Source of the DNA: Candidatus Aenigmatarchaeota archaeon
GTDB lineage: Archaea; Aenigmatarchaeota; Aenigmatarchaeia; QMZP01; JAFGSV01
Assembly (NCBI GenBank): GCA_016931255.1
Contig: JAFGFG010000009.1
Span: 164,661-228,660 of the forward strand
Length of the DNA stretch: 64,000 nucleotides
Direction of reading: 5' to 3'
Positions 14,898 to 42,564 of the stretch are shown piece after piece; positions within the stretch are counted from its first letter, which is position 1; each line of letters opens with the position of its first letter. The position numbers and the translations under genes are program-made. A model generated the notes under the pieces. That model searched no databases. It was given only the letters and a program-made list of their open reading frames with translations, and was not told the DNA's origin.

Positions 14898-17069
14898 CTA
14901 ACTTTTTCCGAAATTCCTGCCTACCAATGAGAGATCATCTATGCATATAACGCCATCTTTGTTAAGGTCAGCTAATGGATTCCATTTGTCCTGTCTTTGC
15001 GGTAAACAATCGCATGAACCGCCTACAATGTAATCCGATGCACATGATTTCATTGATTTGGCTACTATTACGAGGTCTTTAACATCCACTATATCGTCAC
15101 CGTTGGCATCGCCTTTAGGCTTGCATTCACAACTTCCATAACAGTAATCGTCAATGTTGCAGTCTCCATCACTTTCACACTCAGCACCGCACTGTATGAT
15201 GTCGCATGTGTGTGTCAGCGTAACAGTTCCAGTTGTGCATACATCATTGGCTTCGTCACAGCTTGATGTGAATCCCGGGAACCAGTCCCATGTGAATGCT
15301 ATGCTGTCAGGGTCATTCGTGCATGTGGCTATTGAGAGAATATTATTGGCTGAACAATCAACTGCAATTCCAGCTTGGCAATCCAGAAGTGCGTCACATG
15401 TCTCACTGCCGTCGCACCAAAGTTCATTGTCACAGTTCCCATTATTTGGTGTATTTACTATCACATCATTTATTTCATCACAACTGTCGTCAGTGCATGT
15501 TACACCATCGTCTACAACAGGAGGAGTTCCTGCCTGACAGTCAAGGAGTGCGTCACAGAATTCATTCCCATTACAGAAAAGAGTGTCATCACAGAGAGCG
15601 TTATTTACCGAGTTCTCACATGAGTCTGTTTCCTCGTCGCACGAATCAACAGTGCAGCCTACGCCGTCCGAGCAGTCTCTGGATTCGCAACTGCATTCCC
15701 CAGACTGGCACACATCATTCACTGTGCAGAAGTTCCCGTCGTCGCAGGGCGTCCCATCATCCTTGTTGCTGCTCGTACCGGTGTCGACCCACTGCGTGTC
15801 CGTCACGGAGTACTCGCATCCTGAACCTCCACATATGTAATCCCTGTATTCCTCTTCCTTCTGCTCTTTTTCAGTGCACTCGCCGGTGGATACCCACTGT
15901 ATCTCTCCTGTGTCGTACCAGACGTCTGATGCATTACAATCCTCTGTGAGATAGAAACATGAACAGTCGCTCTCGCACGAGCCGCCGTAATTGTAGACAT
16001 CGCCTACACACTTGTCGCTGCACGGATTCTGGGAGTCGCATTCCGCACCGCACTGGGAAACGTTGCATGTGCTCGTTATGCTTACGGTTCCGGTAGTGCA
16101 CACGTCGTTCTCCTCATCGCATGCCGATACGAATCCAGTGAAAACATCCAGTGTCCAATCGTAGCCGTCAGGTGTGTAACTGCATATTGAAATCGGTTCT
16201 ATGTCATTGTTGGTACAGTCAAACGGCTGGAAGAAGCATCCGTCAGGACCCATGCATTCACCGTCATGTCCTTCGCACCAAAGACCGCTTTCAGGAAGCA
16301 GACACAATGCATCCCCATCGTCATCAATCACTCCATTGCAATCGCTATCATTTCCATCACATACTTCATCCACGCTTTCATCAGCGCTTGCACCAGGGTT
16401 CGTGGAGCAGTCAGCAGTGCTTGTTCCCGAACACTCGACCAGTCCCAGTCCGCACTTTCCAATGCCGTCGCATGTCTGGTTTATGTTCAGGCCCTGATAA
16501 GTGAAATCCTCATCACTCAATCCATCGCAGTCATCATCGAGGGCGTTGCAGGTTTCCGATGCAGAATTGTCACGCGTACCGCCCGGGTTCGACCAGCATG
16601 ATGCTGTATTTACATTAAAACACTCGACTTTACCAAAGCCACATGTACCGATTCCATAGCATCCCTGTCCGACATATCTAGACTCTTCATAAACAGGATC
16701 ATCATAATAAAATTCTTCGTCTGTACTGCCGTCGCAGTCATTGTCAAATGTATCGCATATTTCAACGCTAGAGTTATCATGACTTCCACCAGGATTTGTC
16801 CAACAATCTACCTCATTTGTAAAGTTCTCACACTCGACTTTACCAAAGCCACATGTACCGATTCCATAGCATCCCTGTCCGACATATCTAGACTCTTCAT
16901 AAACAGGATCATTATATTCGTCTATGTATCCATCTCCATCATTGTCGATACCATCGCAAATCTCAGTAGCGGCTTTGACATTAGTTGGAGCAAAAAGAAG
17001 AACTAAAGTTACGACTAAAAGAAGAGCCAGTGGAATTGGGCTAGATTTTGTCATCTTAATCCCATCCAT
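14898..17069 (-). CDS. Secreted Cys/Asp-rich protein with MopE-like C-x-DNDCDG-x-DE repeats, internally duplicated Cys modules and a C-terminal dockerin type-I module
   Basis: It has a Sec signal peptide (cleavage after VKA) and four repeats of the form EICDGIDNDGDGYIDE / EICDTFDNDCDGSTDEE. The segment YNDPVYEESRYVGQGCYGIGTCGFGKVEC is duplicated. The C-terminus reads DANGDDIVDVKDLVIVAKSM...DLNKDGVICIDDLSLVGRNF, a paired Ca-binding dockerin repeat. Confidence 0.7.
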   Translation of the reverse strand: MDGIKMTKSSPIPLALLLVVTLVLLFAPTNVKAATEICDGIDNDGDGYIDEYNDPVYEESRYVGQGCYGIGTCGFGKVECENFTNEVDCWTNPGGSHDNSSVEICDTFDNDCDGSTDEEFYYDDPVYEESRYVGQGCYGIGTCGFGKVECFNVNTASCWSNPGGTRDNSASETCNALDDDCDGLSDEDFTYQGLNINQTCDGIGKCGLGLVECSGTSTADCSTNPGASADESVDEVCDGNDSDCNGVIDDDGDALCLLPESGLWCEGHDGECMGPDGCFFQPFDCTNNDIEPISICSYTPDGYDWTLDVFTGFVSACDEENDVCTTGTVSITSTCNVSQCGAECDSQNPCSDKCVGDVYNYGGSCESDCSCFYLTEDCNASDVWYDTGEIQWVSTGECTEKEQKEEEYRDYICGGSGCEYSVTDTQWVDTGTSSNKDDGTPCDDGNFCTVNDVCQSGECSCESRDCSDGVGCTVDSCDEETDSCENSVNNALCDDTLFCNGNEFCDALLDCQAGTPPVVDDGVTCTDDSCDEINDVIVNTPNNGNCDNELWCDGSETCDALLDCQAGIAVDCSANNILSIATCTNDPDSIAFTWDWFPGFTSSCDEANDVCTTGTVTLTHTCDIIQCGAECESDGDCNIDDYCYGSCECKPKGDANGDDIVDVKDLVIVAKSMKSCASDYIVGGSCDCLPQRQDKWNPLADLNKDGVICIDDLSLVGRNFGKS
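16621..16922. repeat. Intragenic direct repeat. Two identical 82-bp copies (16621-16702 and 16841-16922) lie 220 bp apart
   Basis: The copies begin cactcgactttaccaaagccacatgtaccgattccatagcatccctgtccgacatatctagactcttcataaacaggatc and match exactly. Each encodes one of the duplicated YNDPVYEESRYVGQGCYGIGTCGFGKVEC segments. Confidence 0.85.
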
Positions 17070-17253
17070 ATTAGATTCTTGGTTACTTGGATAATTAATA
17101 TTTATCGATTGTATTTAATACTGTGAAGTAGTTACTTATAAAGATTTCCACCCTTTTTTAAGGTGAAAAGCTTTCCAAAAATATGATTTATGTTTAAACG
17201 GTCATGTATAAATCTTATACAAGCTTATAAAACTTACTCAAATAATTTGAATT

Positions 17254-36567: not shown

Positions 36568-37713
36568 TTAAATCTGCTTGTGGACTTTTCCTGCGCTGAG
36601 GAAGCTGCCGGGCTTTATCATCGCGCCGGGCATTATGGACGAGTTTATTCCTGTCCTGACATTGTCTCCCATGATGCAGCCGAGCTTCCGCCTGCCTGTG
36701 TCAACGGCCTTCCCTTTTATTTCCATCTTCACTGCACTGTCATCGAACCTGAGATTGGCAATCTTCGTGCCTGCGCCGAAATTGCAGTTCCTTCCTATCA
36801 CGGAATCCCCCACATATGAGAGGTGCGGTATCTTCGTTCCTTCCATGATTATTGAATTCTTGATTTCAACGAAGTTGCCTATGACGGCATTATCGCCTAT
36901 GACAGTATACGGCCTTATGACTGCGTTCTTGATTTCAGCGTTCTTGCCTATTATCACGTTCTTGTCAATCCTTGCAGACCTGTCAATCTTAGCTGCCGGG
37001 TCTATGCGGCCGCCGTGCTTCTTTATCATGTATTCGTTGACCCTGAGAATGTCCCATGGATACGTGATGAACTCGCATACGGATGCCTCGACTGCATGTA
37101 TATCATCCTCCTTTGCAAGGCTGACAATCGCATCGGTTATCTCATATTCGCCTCTCCTTGTCTTGGGCATCTTCATGCCGAATATCTTCCGGTCCAGAAC
37201 GTAAAGCGCAGCATTTGCCAGGCTGCTCTTCGGCTTCGCTGGTTTTTCATCGATATCCTTCAGGAGACCTTTTTCGATTTCGCATATCCCGAATATCTTC
37301 GGATTCTCCACAATCCTTGTGAGAATGGAATAATCATGTTTTATGCATCTCTCGATATCCTTCCTTTCGTAGAGGTTGTCGCCCATCATGAAAATGAACC
37401 TGTCCTTTATCAGTGCCTTCGCCTGAAGGAGCGCATGCCCTGTGCCCAGCTGCTCTTTCTGGACAGCATACGATATCTTCATGCCGAGAAACTCGTTTCC
37501 GAAATGGTTCCTGATAATTTCTTTCCTGTACCCGACTACGAGTATCACTTCATCGACAAGCCCCCTGAGCTTCTCGATGTTATGCTCCAGGATAGGTCTG
37601 TTGGCCACAGGAAGCATTACCTTGGGTACAGTCTCCGTGAGCGGCCGTAACCTTTCTCCTTTCCCTGCGGCCAGTATAACAGCTTGCATTTTATCGACCT
37701 TTATTTCCACCAC
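36568..37713 (-). CDS. glmU: Bifunctional sugar-1-phosphate nucleotidyltransferase / acyltransferase (GlmU-like, archaeal type)
   Basis: An N-terminal NTP-transferase motif [16 protein letters not shown] is followed by C-terminal left-handed beta-helix hexapeptide repeats. It lies in a cluster with glmS. Confidence 0.75.
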
Positions 37714-38732
37714 TGCTTGAGACCCATTGCTGTGTCAGTCTTCCTGACACTCGTCAGCGGGTCGCTTTCCATCTCGAGCATGGCCCTTATTGCGTCAACA
37801 TTCTCCGGCACGATATCACTTTCCTGATGGATAGCCTGCATGTAGAATAGTTCGCCTTTCCTGGCATTTATGCTTTCATGCCATACAGCTATTTCATTCA
37901 GGTCCGACCTCTGCCTTCCAAGCTCTTTAGCCCATTCCATTATGTGGGCTGTGGACTTTATTCCCTCTGCTGCCTTGATGAGCACAACCCTCGGAGCCTT
38001 CTCGAAGAGCCCGATTACATCGTCGGTGCTCGTGCCGTTCTTCAGCTTCACGTTCACTGTGTGCATGTGCATCAGGGTCGTCGGCACCTTCAGGGCCACT
38101 GTGGTTATGTTCAGGTCAGGGAATATGGTGTTGACATCCGGTCCGTGGTGGGATGGTACTGTCACTGGATCTGGAACAATGGCGTTCACCGGTCCCTTCT
38201 TTATGTCAGCCGGGTCCGGCCCTCTTCGTATCATGACTGCGCTGACGCTTTCTATTCCGTAGTTGCTGATTATGGGTCCGAGTGTCCTGCAGAGTCCTGT
38301 GGTGTTGCACGAGACCACCCTGACGAACTGCCTGCCAATGGAATTCTTGTAGTTGGATGTTGAGTTGAAGGAGACATCCGCAGTTCCGGGCTTCTCTCCG
38401 CCCTGGAATATTACCTTCTTTTTCATATGTATATAGAATTTTTCCTTGTTCTCTATGCCTATGCCGTCAGGTGCGCCGTCAACGATTATGTCTGCCTCGT
38501 CGATAAGCTCTTTTACAAGTCCTTCCACTTTCAGTCCTGCTTCCTCGAACAGCCTGATGTTCTCTTTGCTGGTTGTGTAAAGGGGGTAATTCTTGTTCAT
38601 AGCGCTGAAGGCCTCGAATGTGGGCTTGGTCTTGACTACACCGACTATCTTCATATCCTTCTGCACTGCCACTGCATCAGCAACCCGCCTGCCAACTGTT
38701 CCGTATCCGTTGATTGCCACTTTTACTGCCAC
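37701..38732 (-). CDS. gap2: Glyceraldehyde-3-phosphate dehydrogenase, type II (archaeal)
   Basis: It has [17 protein letters not shown], the catalytic [20 protein letters not shown] and VPTTLMH. It is near-colinear with methanogen GAPDH. Confidence 0.9.
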
Positions 38733-38759
38733 TTTTTCACCTCGCTAATTTAACATGAT

Positions 38760-40553
38760 TCATTCCACTGTCACTGACTTTGCCAGATTCCTCGGCTTGT
38801 CTACATCCAGCCCCTTCCTGTCAGCTATGTAGTATGCAAGGAGCTGCAGCGGAATTATGTTGACTACCGGTGACACTTCGTCCATGGTTTCCGGCACCCT
38901 TATCACCCAGTCGGCGAGCCTCTTTATGTCCATGTCGCCTTCTGTTGCTATTGCGATTATCTTCCCGCGTCTTGCCTTCACTTCTTCCATGTTCGATATG
39001 ATTTTGTCATAACCCTTTCCCTTGTTGGCAATGAAGACAATCGGCATGTTCTCGTCTATAAGCGCTATGGGGCCATGCTTCATCTCAGCTGCGGGGTAGC
39101 CCTCTGCGTGTATGTATGATATCTCCTTGAGCTTCAGCGCGCCTTCAAGCGCAGTGGGGTAGTTTATGCCCCTTCCGAGGTACAGGAAATTGCTGTGGTC
39201 CGCAACTGCATCCGCTATTGCCTTTATTTTCTTGTTCTGCTTCAGCACATGATCCACCTTTTCCGGAAGCCCCCTTATCTCCGAGATAATGTTGCTGTCC
39301 AGTGTCTTGCCATTGCTCTGCCTGAGATCGAGCGCCAGAAGCATTAATGCAACCAGCTGGTTGGTGTACGCTTTCGTGGATGCGACGCCTATCTCAGGCC
39401 CTGCGTGTATGTATATCCCGGTGTCCGCTTCCCTTGCTATGGTGGACCCGACCACGTTTATTATTCCCATTGTCTTTGCTCCCCTCTTCTTGGCTTCCTT
39501 CAGCGCGGCCAGCGTGTCGGCTGTCTCGCCTGACTGCGATATGACAACCACAAGGTCGTTCTTGCCGACAAGAGGTTCCCTGTACCTGAATTCAGATGCA
39601 TAGTCCACTTCTGTGGGTATCTCCGCTATGGACTCGATGAGATACCGTCCTATGAGGGCTGAATGCCAGGAGGTTCCGCACGCCACTATGATGATGCGCC
39701 TGCAATCGGAGAGTGTGCCGTTGACGCTGAGTTTTATGGTCTTTCCTATCCTTCCCCTCATGACGTTTCTGAGTGATTCCGGCTGCTCGAATATCTCCTT
39801 AAGCATGAAATGCTTGAAGCCTCCCTTCTCTATCTGGTCAAGGTCCCATCCTATTTCCTCAACTTCCTTGTCTATTTTCTTGTCAAAGAGGTTCTTCACA
39901 GTGACCTTGCCTGCCTTTATTGAGGCAATCTCCTTGTCTTCAAGGTATATCATCTTCTTTGTGTGCTCAAGTATAGCGGAAGCGTCAGAAGCTGTGAATG
40001 TCTCGTCGTCCTTGACACCTATTATGAGAGGAGACCCGTTCCTCGCCACTATTATCTCTTCGTGGTTCCTGTGTATCACAGCGATGCCGTACGTTCCCCT
40101 CACCTTGATGAGCGCTTTGCTCACAGCTCCCATGAAGTTTCCGGTGTAGAACTTCTCTATGAGATGCGCGAGAACCTCGGTGTCTGTGTCTGTCTGGAAT
40201 GTGTGCCCCTCGCTTTCAAGGAGGTCCCTGAGTGTGCTGTAGTTTTCAATTATACCATTATGCACAAGAGCAAGGTCGCCGTTGCATGCAGTATGCGGAT
40301 GGGCATTGACCATGTTCGGCTCTCCGTGGGTTGCCCATCTTGTATGGGCTATGCCTATTTTTCCGCCGAGTTTGCTGAAGTCGTGCTTTGTGTCAACCTC
40401 GTCTATCTTTCCGCTGTCTTTTATAACATCAAGGCTGCTGTTGAGCACAGCCATGCCCGCTGAGTCATAACCCCTGTACTCAAGCCTTTTCAGGCATTTC
40501 AGCAGTATGGGCGATGCCTTTCTCGGCCCTATGTAACCCACTATTCCGCACAT
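38760..40553 (-). CDS. glmS: Glutamine--fructose-6-phosphate aminotransferase. The start is re-set to MCGIVGY
   Basis: An N-terminal Cys nucleophile (MCGIVGYIG) is followed by two SIS domains and the C-terminal motif NLAKSVTVE. Confidence 0.9.
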   Translation of the reverse strand: MCGIVGYIGPRKASPILLKCLKRLEYRGYDSAGMAVLNSSLDVIKDSGKIDEVDTKHDFSKLGGKIGIAHTRWATHGEPNMVNAHPHTACNGDLALVHNGIIENYSTLRDLLESEGHTFQTDTDTEVLAHLIEKFYTGNFMGAVSKALIKVRGTYGIAVIHRNHEEIIVARNGSPLIIGVKDDETFTASDASAILEHTKKMIYLEDKEIASIKAGKVTVKNLFDKKIDKEVEEIGWDLDQIEKGGFKHFMLKEIFEQPESLRNVMRGRIGKTIKLSVNGTLSDCRRIIIVACGTSWHSALIGRYLIESIAEIPTEVDYASEFRYREPLVGKNDLVVVISQSGETADTLAALKEAKKRGAKTMGIINVVGSTIAREADTGIYIHAGPEIGVASTKAYTNQLVALMLLALDLRQSNGKTLDSNIISEIRGLPEKVDHVLKQNKKIKAIADAVADHSNFLYLGRGINYPTALEGALKLKEISYIHAEGYPAAEMKHGPIALIDENMPIVFIANKGKGYDKIISNMEEVKARRGKIIAIATEGDMDIKRLADWVIRVPETMDEVSPVVNIIPLQLLAYYIADRKGLDVDKPRNLAKSVTVE

Positions 40554-40595
40554 AATATCACCAAGGATAAGTAGAGACTTGTTGGGCATTATTTA

Positions 40596-40620
40596 AAGAC
40601 ATTACTGATAAAAATGTCTT
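40596..40620. terminator. Perfect 8-bp inverted repeat (aagacatt-N9-aatgtctt) in the glmS upstream / HTH-gene upstream intergenic region
   Basis: The palindrome is seen directly in the sequence. It is flanked by two TTATAAAT TATA-like boxes at about 40660 and 40685. Confidence 0.3.
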
Positions 40621-40715
40621 AATAGATGCCGGTTCTGGGGCATGAATTGGGTAAATGCTTATAAATGGTCCTATGGAAAACTTATAAATATTAAAACAAA
40701 ATTCATAAAGGTACT

Positions 40716-41642
40716 ATGTCAAAATATTTCCTCTTAAAGAGCGGCAAGGAGAATGAGGTAGCTCCTGTGCTGATTTTCAAGAATCCCTCAAGGCTGAGTG
40801 TCCTCACTTCAGAGCTTGGATGGAAGATATTCACAATGATGTCCCAGCCGCAGTGCCCGATGGACCTGGCGAAGAAGCTTGGCCTTCATGAGCAGAAGGT
40901 TTACTATTACATAAAGAAGCTCAGGGAAAGCGGGCTGATACATGAGCTCAGGACAGAGCAGAGGCACGGCGCAGTGGCAAAGTTCTATCAGGCATCCGAC
41001 GAGGCATTTGCGCTGGCATCTGAGAATGTCACATTCAGTAAGCTGAGCATAAAGTCTCCGCAGAAGTCGCGCCTGCTAAACCCTTTCATAAAGGATGGGA
41101 GGCTGAATTCAACCATAGTCGTTGGCTCCCCTGACCCGCACGGCCCGTACAAGGCCCGTGCGAGCGATGCCTGCTGCGCAATAGACCTCGCTCTCTTCAT
41201 GGGGGCATTCACGTCAGGCGACAACCTTCCCAATTACAAGCTGGACACAGAGGTCAGGGATGACACACTCAGAGGCAACATGGTCCTGATAGGCGGGCCG
41301 ACAGCGAACATGATAACAATGAAGCACAACAGGGAATTCCCGATATACATAGACATGGAGCACGAGAGGAACATCATCTCCACACTCTCCAAGAAGACAT
41401 ACACAGATGATGACACGGGCATAGTCAGCATAATACAGAATCCGGAGAACCCTGAGAAGAAGATACTCATGCTGGCGGGAAAGAGGTTCGCAGGAACCCG
41501 TGCGTCCATACTTTCAGTTGTGACAAGGTTCGAGGAGTTTCTTGATGGAAACAAGTTCAGCAGTGATGTCAAGGCGCGCGTTGTCAAGGGCTACGACATG
41601 GACGGCGACGGCATAATAGACACAGCAGAGTTCTTGGAGTAA
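40716..41642 (+). CDS. Winged-HTH regulator with a C-terminal EF-hand-like Ca-binding loop
   Basis: An N-terminal ArsR/TrmB-like wHTH (LAKKLGLHEQKVYYYIKKLRESGLI) and a C-terminal GYDMDGDGIIDTAEFLE (DxDxDGxIxxxE). Confidence 0.5.
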   Translation: MSKYFLLKSGKENEVAPVLIFKNPSRLSVLTSELGWKIFTMMSQPQCPMDLAKKLGLHEQKVYYYIKKLRESGLIHELRTEQRHGAVAKFYQASDEAFALASENVTFSKLSIKSPQKSRLLNPFIKDGRLNSTIVVGSPDPHGPYKARASDACCAIDLALFMGAFTSGDNLPNYKLDTEVRDDTLRGNMVLIGGPTANMITMKHNREFPIYIDMEHERNIISTLSKKTYTDDDTGIVSIIQNPENPEKKILMLAGKRFAGTRASILSVVTRFEEFLDGNKFSSDVKARVVKGYDMDGDGIIDTAEFLE

Positions 41643-41673
41643 CAGATTTTAATCATCTATACGATAAACACAT

Positions 41674-42564
41674 ATGATTTCAGAAGATGAGATTGCGAAG
41701 TACAGGGAAGCCGGCGCCATTGTGGCAAAACTTCGTGTGGACATGCTTAAGACAATCAGGCCCGGAACAAAGCTGCTGGACATCGGAGAGAAGATTGAAG
41801 GAACGATACTGAAAGCCGGCGCAAAGCCCGCGTTTCCTGTGAACATAAGCATAAACGAGTCCGCTGCCCATTATACGCCACAGATAGGCGATGAAAAGAC
41901 TGTTGGTGACGGAGACCTTGTGAAGATAGACATAGGCGCGCATGTCGATGGCTATGTGGCTGACATGGCTTTCACCTACTGCTCAGAGAAGAGCCCGCTC
42001 ATAAAGGCAGCGGAGGATGCGCTCAGAGAGGGCATATCCGTCATAAGGCCCGGTGTGAAGGTTTCAGAGATTAGCCAGGCGATTTATGGAAGCATGAAGT
42101 CTTCGGGATGCGCTCCTGTTGTGAACCTTTCCGGACACGGCATAGGCCGTTACGATTTTCACGGCAGGTTCTCCATACCCAATGTCCCGAACAACAGCAG
42201 CATCGTGCTGGGGGAAGGCGATGTCATAGCGCTTGAGCCTTTCGTTGCGGAAAGCGCTGTGCATGTGACCGAGGCGAACCCTGTTGAGATTTACCAGTTC
42301 GCGCAGAAAAGGCCAGTGAGAATGATGGAGTCGCGAAAGATAATGTCCTTGGCCGAGAATGATTACAGCAGCTTCCCGTTCGCGAAGCGGTGGCTTGCTA
42401 AGCACATATCGCCCATGAAGATAAAGATGGCGCTTCTTGAGCTTGAGCGCGCAGGCGCACTCCAGTCCTATCCTGTGCTCAAGGACATGCAGGGCCGAAA
42501 GATTGCTCAGGCAGAGGACACAATCATCGTCATGGACAAGCCCATAGTCACGACAAGACTTTAG
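41674..42564 (+). CDS. map: Methionine aminopeptidase, type 2
   Basis: Pita-bread fold with metal ligands (D...D...H...E...E) and the GHGIGRYDFHG motif. Confidence 0.85.
   Translation: MISEDEIAKYREAGAIVAKLRVDMLKTIRPGTKLLDIGEKIEGTILKAGAKPAFPVNISINESAAHYTPQIGDEKTVGDGDLVKIDIGAHVDGYVADMAFTYCSEKSPLIKAAEDALREGISVIRPGVKVSEISQAIYGSMKSSGCAPVVNLSGHGIGRYDFHGRFSIPNVPNNSSIVLGEGDVIALEPFVAESAVHVTEANPVEIYQFAQKRPVRMMESRKIMSLAENDYSSFPFAKRWLAKHISPMKIKMALLELERAGALQSYPVLKDMQGRKIAQAEDTIIVMDKPIVTTRL

Follow-up and report, generated by a model that had tools for sequence, protein, structure and literature searches.

The stretch of 64,000 nucleotides from a Candidatus Aenigmatarchaeota archaeon (assembly GCA_016931255.1, contig JAFGFG010000009.1, positions 164,661 to 228,660), referred to here as the window, contains a gene for a protein of 308 amino acids that lies back to back with genes for the synthesis of UDP-N-acetylglucosamine (UDP-GlcNAc). 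This compound serves as precursor for N-glycans, for S-layer glycans, and for further polymers of the envelope. Its supply in bacteria is controlled by a ribozyme, by small RNAs, or by repressors of the NagC/NagR type; to our knowledge, control of this supply in archaea is essentially unknown. The protein, called the regulator in what follows, is probably a dimeric, autoregulated one-component transcription factor (TF) controlling the divergent glmS–gap–glmU operon, in which an S-layer-type domain would dimerize the protein and sense an effector and a calcium loop would have a structural or modulating role. The open reading frame coordinates given in an earlier note on this DNA, made from the letters alone, were matched exactly. 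The gene, the parts of its product, and the facing operon are the following:

40716–41642, forward strand: regulator coding sequence from the open reading frame listing, 308 amino acids, ATG start, with a winged helix-turn-helix (wHTH), an S-layer-anchor-like domain, and a tail with a putative calcium loop
40785–40994, forward strand (amino acids 24–93): wHTH, with the recognition helix HEQKVYYYIKKLR at amino acids 59–71 (40890–40928)
41100–41543, forward strand (amino acids about 129–276): S-layer-anchor-like alpha/beta domain, the presumed dimerization or sensor module
41544–41639, forward strand (amino acids 277–308): family-specific C-terminal extension, comprising a short helix, a strand (287–293), a loop, a strand (303–306), and a terminal Leu-Glu
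41595–41630, forward strand (amino acids 294–305): Dx[DN]xDG loop DMDGDGIIDTAE within the C-terminal extension
36568–40553, reverse strand: divergent operon with glmS (38760–40553), a type II glyceraldehyde-3-phosphate dehydrogenase (GAPDH) gene (37701–38732), and an archaeal bifunctional glmU (36568–37713)

Relatives of the regulator are numerous. A database clustered at 90% identity yielded 991 matches, of which the best 120 listed are essentially all full length (about 308 amino acids), and the family forms 175 clusters at 50% identity (E ≤ 1e-30). The protein of the window is 98% identical to that of an uncultured-archaeon metagenome-assembled genome. Relatives are encoded in at least 168 GTDB species-representative stretches, and the best 80 of these 168 come from Aenigmarchaeota, Bathyarchaeia, Nanohaloarchaea, and Nanoarchaeia. 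The surroundings of the gene were compared in 87 loci, a few of them redundant. In 60 of them glmS is directly divergent to the regulator gene across a gap of 110–320 bp (Aenigmarchaeota, Nanohaloarchaea, and some Bathyarchaeia), and in another 16, mostly from Bathyarchaeia, it is found 1.1–2.7 kb upstream on the opposite strand. Seven loci have too little upstream DNA to be informative, and glmS is missing from four. Among the loci without glmS, L057 has a divergent operon for a mutase of the phosphoglucomutase/phosphomannomutase family (GlmM-like), a HAD hydrolase, and an NTP-transferase, and L074 carries a GT2 glycosyltransferase gene in the divergent position. The glmS operons often run on into glmM, an acetyltransferase gene, and glmU. 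The divergence from a glmS amino-sugar cluster, to which the earlier note had drawn attention, is thus conserved across phyla, and this linkage to UDP-GlcNAc synthesis can be regarded as the strongest functional evidence for the regulator. Because it is nearly always back to back with those genes, the regulator is a strong candidate for a regulator of UDP-GlcNAc genes in archaea.

The identities of the three divergent genes are supported by NCBIfam scores of 829 bits for glmS (TIGR01135), 494 bits for the GAPDH gene (TIGR01546), and 428 bits for glmU (TIGR03992), and by Pfam matches. The start of glmS deserves some attention, since it sets the limits of the promoter region. GlmS needs a cysteine as its first residue once the methionine has been removed, this Cys1 being the nucleophile; for this reason, and because the TIGR01135 alignment begins at residue 2, the start was placed at the methionine of MCGIVGY at 40553 and not at 40589, where the mechanical open reading frame begins 12 codons early. 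The intergenic region therefore extends from 40554 to 40715.

The first 80 or so residues of the regulator had been described in the earlier note as a DNA-binding domain, and the family profile confirms this assignment. The Pfam model HTH_5 is only marginally over its cutoff (22.4 vs. 22.0), with a dozen other wHTH families slightly under theirs, but a profile built from 61 family members matches the archaeal TF PH1932 (1uly) over positions 15–121 with an E-value of 5e-18, and also Phr (2p4w, E 1e-9) and SurR (2quf, E 5e-7). The wHTH fold, with three helices, the recognition helix, and a beta wing, was detected by profile as well as by structure; it is preceded by an N-terminal beta hairpin (amino acids 3–21), and the recognition helix (HEQKVYYY) ranks among the best-conserved segments of the family. 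Judging from these matches, the N-terminal domain places the protein in the PH1932/ArsR-like wHTH group. The identity of an ArsR/SmtB metalloregulator was rejected, given that the NCBIfam model HTH_metalloreg scores 16.0 bits against a cutoff of 55; the CmtR and Rv2640c models fall far under their cutoffs, and none of the metal-sensing ArsR/SmtB sites (alpha3N/alpha5) is present in the regulator. The Pfam TrmB model reaches 16.7 against a cutoff of 25.6, and in its HTH part only. It might be argued that the protein is not a regulator at all, that its wHTH contacts protein or RNA, and that it assists amino-sugar or S-layer biogenesis as a scaffold or chaperone in the cytoplasm, the synteny reflecting mere co-expression. 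The marginal HTH_5 score would fit this proposal, as would the fact that a single operator motif was not identified; nevertheless, the strong matches of the family profile to archaeal TFs, the conservation of the recognition helix, and a divergent layout with promoter-proximal elements and a palindrome at its own promoter, as is typical of a TF that regulates its own gene, make it highly improbable.

The middle part, put at about 200 amino acids in the earlier note, had been considered uncharacterized. This is not the case: it is an alpha/beta domain of roughly 150 amino acids that matches the Pfam family S_layer_C (PF05124) with an E-value of 1.2e-10 (41.7 bits vs. a cutoff of 23.9) and has the fold of the 9fsa anchor, a homology on which the sequence profile, hhalign, and two fold searches agree. 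The structure 9fsa is an engineered fusion of residues 24–75 and 484–576 that make up the anchor domain of the Methanococcus voltae S-layer protein; in the native protein, this domain is interrupted by the lattice-forming ones and makes a two-fold dimeric anchor (PMC11410804). The genuine S-layer proteins whose genes adjoin some regulator genes have their anchor split likewise. In them, the segment after the signal peptide (VVIGGSATAPP…GIDVGVALAGF) corresponds to regulator residues 130–166, and the C-terminal 90 or so residues (LILIGGPCAN…ALVIAG…TR) align with regulator residues 172–264; hhalign matches the regulator with the real anchor at 96.1% and an E-value of 3e-9, the identity being about 22–26%. 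The motifs LDTEV, LIGGPxxN, and AGxRxxGT are common to both. Since native S-layer proteins split the same domain, the regulator holds a natural, uninterrupted version of it. In contrast to the extracellular anchor (9fsa, PF05124), which is divided by hundreds of residues, this version is contiguous, fused to a wHTH, and cytoplasmic, as deduced from the absence of a hydrophobic N-terminus and of any transmembrane segment (no signal peptide was found either; the maximum 19-residue hydropathy, KD19, is 1.26). It also differs from the anchor in having the motif GSPDPHGP (amino acids 137–144, with H142 and G143 invariant) and a tail of 32 residues with the calcium loop. Both this motif and the family-specific residues D177 and N198 are missing from the S-layer proteins. 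Being regulator-specific and without counterparts there, they would form a surface that is a candidate effector site. Six representatives of 173–204 amino acids (P0155, P0183, P0229, P0238, P0258, and P0264) match only positions 118–308 or so of the profile, which cover the S-layer-like domain and the calcium tail, and have no wHTH; they may consist of the sensor domain alone, or their genes may have been called too short.

The members of the family are named in databases as ArsR family transcriptional regulator, hypothetical protein, or, in the case of P0031 and P0034, S-layer protein. The last name probably arises because the score with the model TIGR01564 (S_layer_MJ), 25.1, just passes the cutoff of 25, and it is probably an error of annotation that is being passed on. 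Taken literally, it would make the regulator a small S-layer protein, which borders on the negligible: the regulator lacks export signals (signal peptide or transmembrane segment) and lattice domains, it has an N-terminal wHTH, and the true S-layer proteins of the same loci comprise 755–914 amino acids, have a signal peptide, and carry the anchor in two pieces. That identity was consequently refuted. Genes for such proteins adjoin the regulator gene in 11 Aenigmarchaeota loci (L004, 7229–9562; L005, 7185–9653; L023, L029, L032, L034, L037, L049, L053, L054, and L055), in 10 of them downstream on the same strand and in L053 on the opposite strand. Their products share a signal peptide of the type MNIRKILAGGLAAIAAGAT, the split S_layer_C-type anchor, and a conserved C-terminal AAKVMxGTLSYEA, and they could serve to define a DPANN S-layer family.

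The proximity of these genes, together with the homology to an anchor that forms dimers, prompts one to ask whether the regulator heterodimerizes with S-layer subunits that have not been exported or assembled, or with another protein bearing the domain, so as to report the S-layer supply and adjust the glycan precursors. LDTEV, GGPxxN, and AGxxxxT, in common with the S-layer proteins, would be candidate interface or core residues. Such a sensor of envelope assembly seems distinctly doubtful to us. The domain of the S-layer proteins is split by at least 600 residues and exported, which makes a folded cytoplasmic partner unlikely; the identity is low, the GSPDPHGP motif that is invariant in the TFs is absent from the supposed partners, and most loci, the window included, have no adjacent S-layer gene.

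The C-terminus is the second unusual part of the regulator. Its last 15 residues are D-M-D-G-D-G-I-I-D-T-A-E-F-L-E, and the loop DMDGDGIIDTAE meets the 12-residue ligand pattern at positions 1, 3, 5, 7, 9, and 12. The 13-residue PROSITE-type EF-hand pattern, which we take to be that of PS00018, fits amino acids 294–306 (41595–41633); any match to it occurs in 31 of 20,000 shuffles. Homologs without this loop would have spoken for a chance match, as the earlier note pointed out, but among full-length members the DxDxDGxxD core is kept by 115 of the 119 close ones and by 109 of the 131 diverse ones, and the PS00018-type pattern is fitted by 116 and 76 of these, respectively. D294 is invariant and D298, G299, D302, and E308 are at least 90% conserved in relatives down to 29% identity, while position 12 of the loop is acidic in 194 of 224 members. 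Because the loop is conserved family-wide, the match is not fortuitous. The tail, of about 32 residues, is a regulator-specific addition, and it was not found in the adjacent real S-layer proteins, whose chains stop directly after the last helix of the domain; the sole internal DLNGDGSIE among them is in L004.

The structure of this tail is not that of a canonical EF-hand loop, which is what had been proposed. Two AlphaFold2 models agree on a strand (287–293), the loop (294–302), and a second strand (303–306), and the second of them, based on the 61-sequence alignment, has a mean pLDDT (predicted local distance difference test score) of 94.3, a pTM (predicted template modeling score) of 0.75, and a pLDDT of 98 in the tail. 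In 201 of 224 members, the chain runs on for exactly three residues past loop position 12 and ends in Leu-Glu, so that an exiting helix would find no space. The loop stands alone, without a paired hand, and all Pfam EF-hand models stay under their cutoffs (EF-hand_1, 14.7 vs. 25.4; EF-hand_5, 12.7 vs. 25.9; EF-hand_8, 12.3 vs. 28). In comparison with canonical EF-hands such as those of calmodulin and the polcalcins, the regulator fits the ligand pattern, with Glu12 in most members, but has neither entering and exiting helices nor a paired hand; weak phmmer matches to a polcalcin and to calcium vector protein have E-values of about 2. What stands of the proposal is an acidic loop conserved throughout the family, and the identity of an EF-hand protein was rejected. 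Indeed, for the EF-hand proteins, the S-layer proteins, and the ArsR metalloregulators alike, one defining feature was looked for in the regulator and found to be lacking, for which reason it was assigned to none of them. The tail instead carries a non-EF-hand Dx[DN]xDG calcium-loop signature, set between two strands in the models, and is predicted to bind Ca2+. Loops of this kind, including strand-loop-strand ones, are known to bind Ca2+ with EF-hand-like geometry, which is nearly identical in many folds; they are strongly biased to secreted and surface proteins and are rare in archaea (PMC3123361), which makes a cytoplasmic, HTH-fused archaeal example unusual. The calcium blades of integrin-like propellers and the dockerins (Rigden et al., 2011; PMC3123361) share with the regulator the Dx[DN]xDG motif between strands and the extra acidic ligand two residues after the glycine (position 9); unlike them, the regulator has no propeller or repeat array but one loop at its extreme C-terminus.

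S-layer lattices typically depend on calcium, and the loop could in principle be more than a structural element. If its occupancy were the signal, Ca2+ would alter dimerization or DNA affinity and tie glmS expression to calcium. The conservation of its ligands in distant relatives, its presence as a family-specific addition to a domain that lacks it in S-layer proteins, and the chain end fixed three residues past it speak in favor of this proposal, and some Dx[DN]xDG sites are regulatory, but most of the non-EF-hand ones are structural (PMC3123361). Furthermore, the ligand set is lost in 22 of the 131 diverse full-length members, in which hairpin and terminal LE persist; this speaks against Ca2+ as a universal signal. 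About 13% of members have a non-acidic residue at position 12, and a single unpaired site without helix-loop-helix offers no known mechanism for a conformational switch. A calcium switch is therefore rather unlikely, if by no means negligible. A broader proposal, in which the family is an envelope-homeostasis switch made from a recruited S-layer anchor domain and a Ca2+ site, reading free Ca2+ or unassembled S-layer-type subunits and setting UDP-GlcNAc synthesis and, in some lineages, S-layer genes, appears to us improbable.

Regarding the DNA on which the regulator would act, the region between the two genes contains several elements:

40554–40715, no strand assigned: divergent promoter region of glmS and the regulator gene, 162 bp; the intergenic regions of 60 loci share two blocks
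40590–40623, reverse strand: block (i), glmS-proximal, with the TATA-like TTTAAATA at 40590–40597 and a B recognition element (BRE)-like AAAG(C/A)N, and about 20 nt upstream
40586–40629, no strand assigned: imperfect 17/18-nt inverted repeat GCATTATTtaAAGACATT-N9-AATGTCTTAATAgATGC, which contains the palindrome at 40596–40620 and overlaps the glmS TATA-like element
40659–40666, forward strand: TATA-like element TTATAAAT, preceded by a BRE-like AAATGC; presumed regulator promoter
40685–40694, no strand assigned: palindromic element TAAATATTAA, window-clade variant of the family ATAATATTAT; candidate autoregulatory operator

Block (i) consists, on the glmS strand, of the TATA element, the BRE-like AAAGCG, and about 20 nucleotides further upstream. 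Its forward-strand consensus in Aenigmarchaeota, from an information-content profile of 48 loci, is cTAT(A/T)TAAAcgCTTTAyTGAgAA…TTAA, part of which reads ATTACTGATAA in the window (40599–40611). It is kept in L057, where the GlmM-like gene stands in for glmS. A position weight matrix (PWM) of the block scores 24.4 bits at this site against 10.6 for the next best, so that the block is unique in the window; no second site, and in this sense no wider regulon, was found by this PWM in the 64 kb. A similar TAAAAC-N4-TTCC…TTATA block is present at the glmS promoters of Bathyarchaeia, whose upstream element TTTTAATTCTAAAAC-N4-TTCC is like the Aenigmarchaeota block. Block (i) may act as a promoter or as an operator.

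Block (ii), proximal to the regulator gene, is formed by AAAGCTTTATAAA, which is conserved at the regulator promoter in Aenigmarchaeota, about 22 nucleotides, and then the perfect palindrome ATAATATTAT. The TATA-like element of the regulator is one of two CTTATAAAT copies. The palindrome (TAAATATTAA in the window, ATAATATTAT in the family) gives the strongest conserved columns of the block, and its center lies some 27–28 nucleotides downstream of that of the TATA element, at or near the presumed transcription start. In 314 kb of Aenigmarchaeota loci there are 12 exact copies of ATAATATTAT, and 10 of these lie no more than 140 nucleotides upstream of the regulator gene. Phr is known to bind an AT-rich site of 29 bp over the transcription start, and the placement of TAAATATTAA resembles that of this site (PMC6316755). 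Alternatively, the palindrome TAAATATTAA could be the TATA box of a leaderless mRNA. A Shine-Dalgarno (SD)-like A(A/T)GGT is kept at positions -9 to -5 relative to the regulator ATG, and the enrichment of SD-like motifs there (29/50 vs. 7/50) favors, only modestly, a leadered regulator mRNA.

The operator that the earlier note had proposed, the palindrome AAGACATT-N9-AATGTCTT at 40596–40620, lies 43–67 nucleotides upstream of the glmS start, over the TATA-like TTTAAATA, and is statistically real in the window, where the dyad at 40586–40629 has a folding z of -5.5 to -5.8. The same architecture, with other bases in the outer arms, is seen in L010, L012, L013, and L014 (71–80% protein identity), and thus in the nearest clade only. 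As a family-wide dyad it was not recovered from 48 anchored promoters (complementarity 0.37 vs. a shuffled mean of 0.38; median folding z -0.1), and it was rejected as a family-wide operator on account of this chance-level complementarity. The dyad is therefore a real but lineage-limited structure lying on top of a sequence that is conserved family-wide. That the glmS leader contains a structured RNA or a ribozyme was rejected too, as an Rfam scan of 40300–40900, which included the glmS ribozyme, gave nothing at threshold (CbSR9, at chance level, scored 18 bits vs. 279).

The promoters of glmS and of the regulator gene have another feature in common. In 19 Bathyarchaeia loci of about 10 kb, the 14-mer AAAA[AT][GA][CT]TTATA is found only upstream of these two genes, and in Aenigmarchaeota the extended BRE/TATA form has 26 matches at the glmS and regulator genes against 4 elsewhere. 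This restriction or enrichment at both genes indicates that they share a distinctive promoter signature. An example of the 14-mer is provided by L064 (3869, reverse strand, and 4955, forward strand); within the range of these loci (L060–L087), the two genes are kilobases apart. The Aenigmarchaeota upstream-element PWM, when moved to Bathyarchaeia, had the BRE/TATA of the regulator as its top match in 13 of 18 loci. This result is confounded, and the comparison was set aside in favor of the exact-motif census because AT-rich core promoters resemble one another and orthologous promoters are non-independent.

According to the reading that we prefer, that of a one-component regulator of UDP-GlcNAc supply, the PH1932/ArsR-type wHTH would bind DNA within the divergent promoter region of 162 bp and would be joined by a flexible linker to the compact copy of the S-layer anchor domain, and this domain would most likely dimerize the protein and sense an effector. 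The dimer would control the transcription of glmS–gap–glmU, and with it the UDP-GlcNAc available for envelope and S-layer glycans, and probably that of its own gene through the site over its transcription start. The input would most likely be an amino-sugar pathway metabolite that binds to the GSPDPHGP/D177/N198 surface, with Ca2+ acting as a structural or modulating cofactor at the C-terminal beta hairpin. That the domains are homologous, that the loop and the promoter blocks are conserved, and that the synteny spans phyla was observed; we infer DNA binding, dimerization, the targets and whether they are activated or repressed, and the effector. Sequence-specific DNA binding by a dimer has indirect support in the conserved recognition helix, in the conserved palindrome at the regulator promoter, and in the dimer-forming homolog of the C-terminal domain. 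The regulator presumably works like the archaeal one-component wHTH regulators Phr, SurR, and TrmB. Several points weigh against this reading. Synteny alone fits a protein that regulates glmS and one that is co-regulated with it equally well, and a literature search for experiments on any family member found none. The sensor domain shows no ligand pocket recognizable by homology, and its fold relatives (the S-layer anchor, a BcsB module, and N-terminal domains of glycoside hydrolases) are structural, non-catalytic modules. The block on the glmS side and the palindrome on the regulator side do not have the same sequence, and a single operator motif was thus not found; the shared promoter motif overlaps the BRE/TATA and could reflect an unusual core promoter rather than an operator; and orthologous promoters are not independent observations.

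Among the known systems, the nearest are PH1932 of P. horikoshii (PDB 1uly/2cwe) and Phr of P. furiosus (PF1790, PDB 2p4w), in which an archaeal ArsR-like wHTH is likewise followed by a C-terminal dimerization domain. That domain is helical in both, whereas in the regulator it is of the S-layer-anchor alpha/beta type with a calcium loop, and proteins of the Phr type target heat-shock genes, as opposed to the amino-sugar operon proposed here. TrmB, a one-component wHTH protein that controls sugar metabolism and has its effector domain at the C-terminus, offers a functional analogy only, since its sugar-binding domain has no homology to the sensor domain of the regulator. The same applies to the bacterial glmS ribozyme, GlmY/GlmZ-RapZ, and NagC/NagR, which provide feedback on the supply of glucosamine-6-phosphate (GlcN6P) or UDP-GlcNAc. 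Literature searches for archaeal regulators of glmS or UDP-GlcNAc found no archaeal equivalent, and those for an HTH and S_layer_C fusion and for PF05124 found nothing relevant. No paper was found on the combination of a wHTH joined to an undivided S-layer anchor domain, a Dx[DN]xDG hairpin in the cytoplasm, and synteny with UDP-GlcNAc genes across phyla.

The family provides a concrete and testable candidate in the DPANN lineages and Bathyarchaeia, groups with scarcely any experimentally studied regulators. If the predicted functions are right, it would also be a case of unusual domain recruitment, with an extracellular S-layer anchoring module reused intact as the oligomerization or sensor domain of a cytoplasmic DNA-binding protein. 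Under the improbable reading as an envelope-homeostasis switch, a conserved circuit would be common to DPANN and Bathyarchaeia, and the regulator would be the first described for amino-sugar precursor supply in archaea. In any case, the name S-layer protein needs correcting in the databases for members of this family.

Some observations concern neighboring genes. In the window, the gene 3′ of the regulator encodes a type II methionine aminopeptidase (MetAP-II), which starts at 41674, leaving 31 nucleotides (41643–41673) after the regulator stop codon; the arrangement is repeated in L001, and both genes may be co-transcribed in the window clade. In Bathyarchaeia, a gene for a protein of about 142 amino acids lies directly 3′ of the regulator gene in L064 (5988–6419, forward strand) and L073 (5993–6418, forward strand), the two glmS-bearing loci compared; the products have similar N-termini and that of L064 belongs to DUF371 (Pfam PF04027, E 3e-47). 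L074 has no such gene. Elsewhere in the window, an open frame of 738 amino acids (14901–17114, reverse strand) ends in two EF-hand-like repeats, DANGDDIVDVKDL and DLNKDGVICIDDL, at 15072–15110 and 14931–14969, each followed by hydrophobic, helix-like residues. This pair looks like a type-I dockerin module and would point to a surface system of the cohesin–dockerin type in this DPANN genome.

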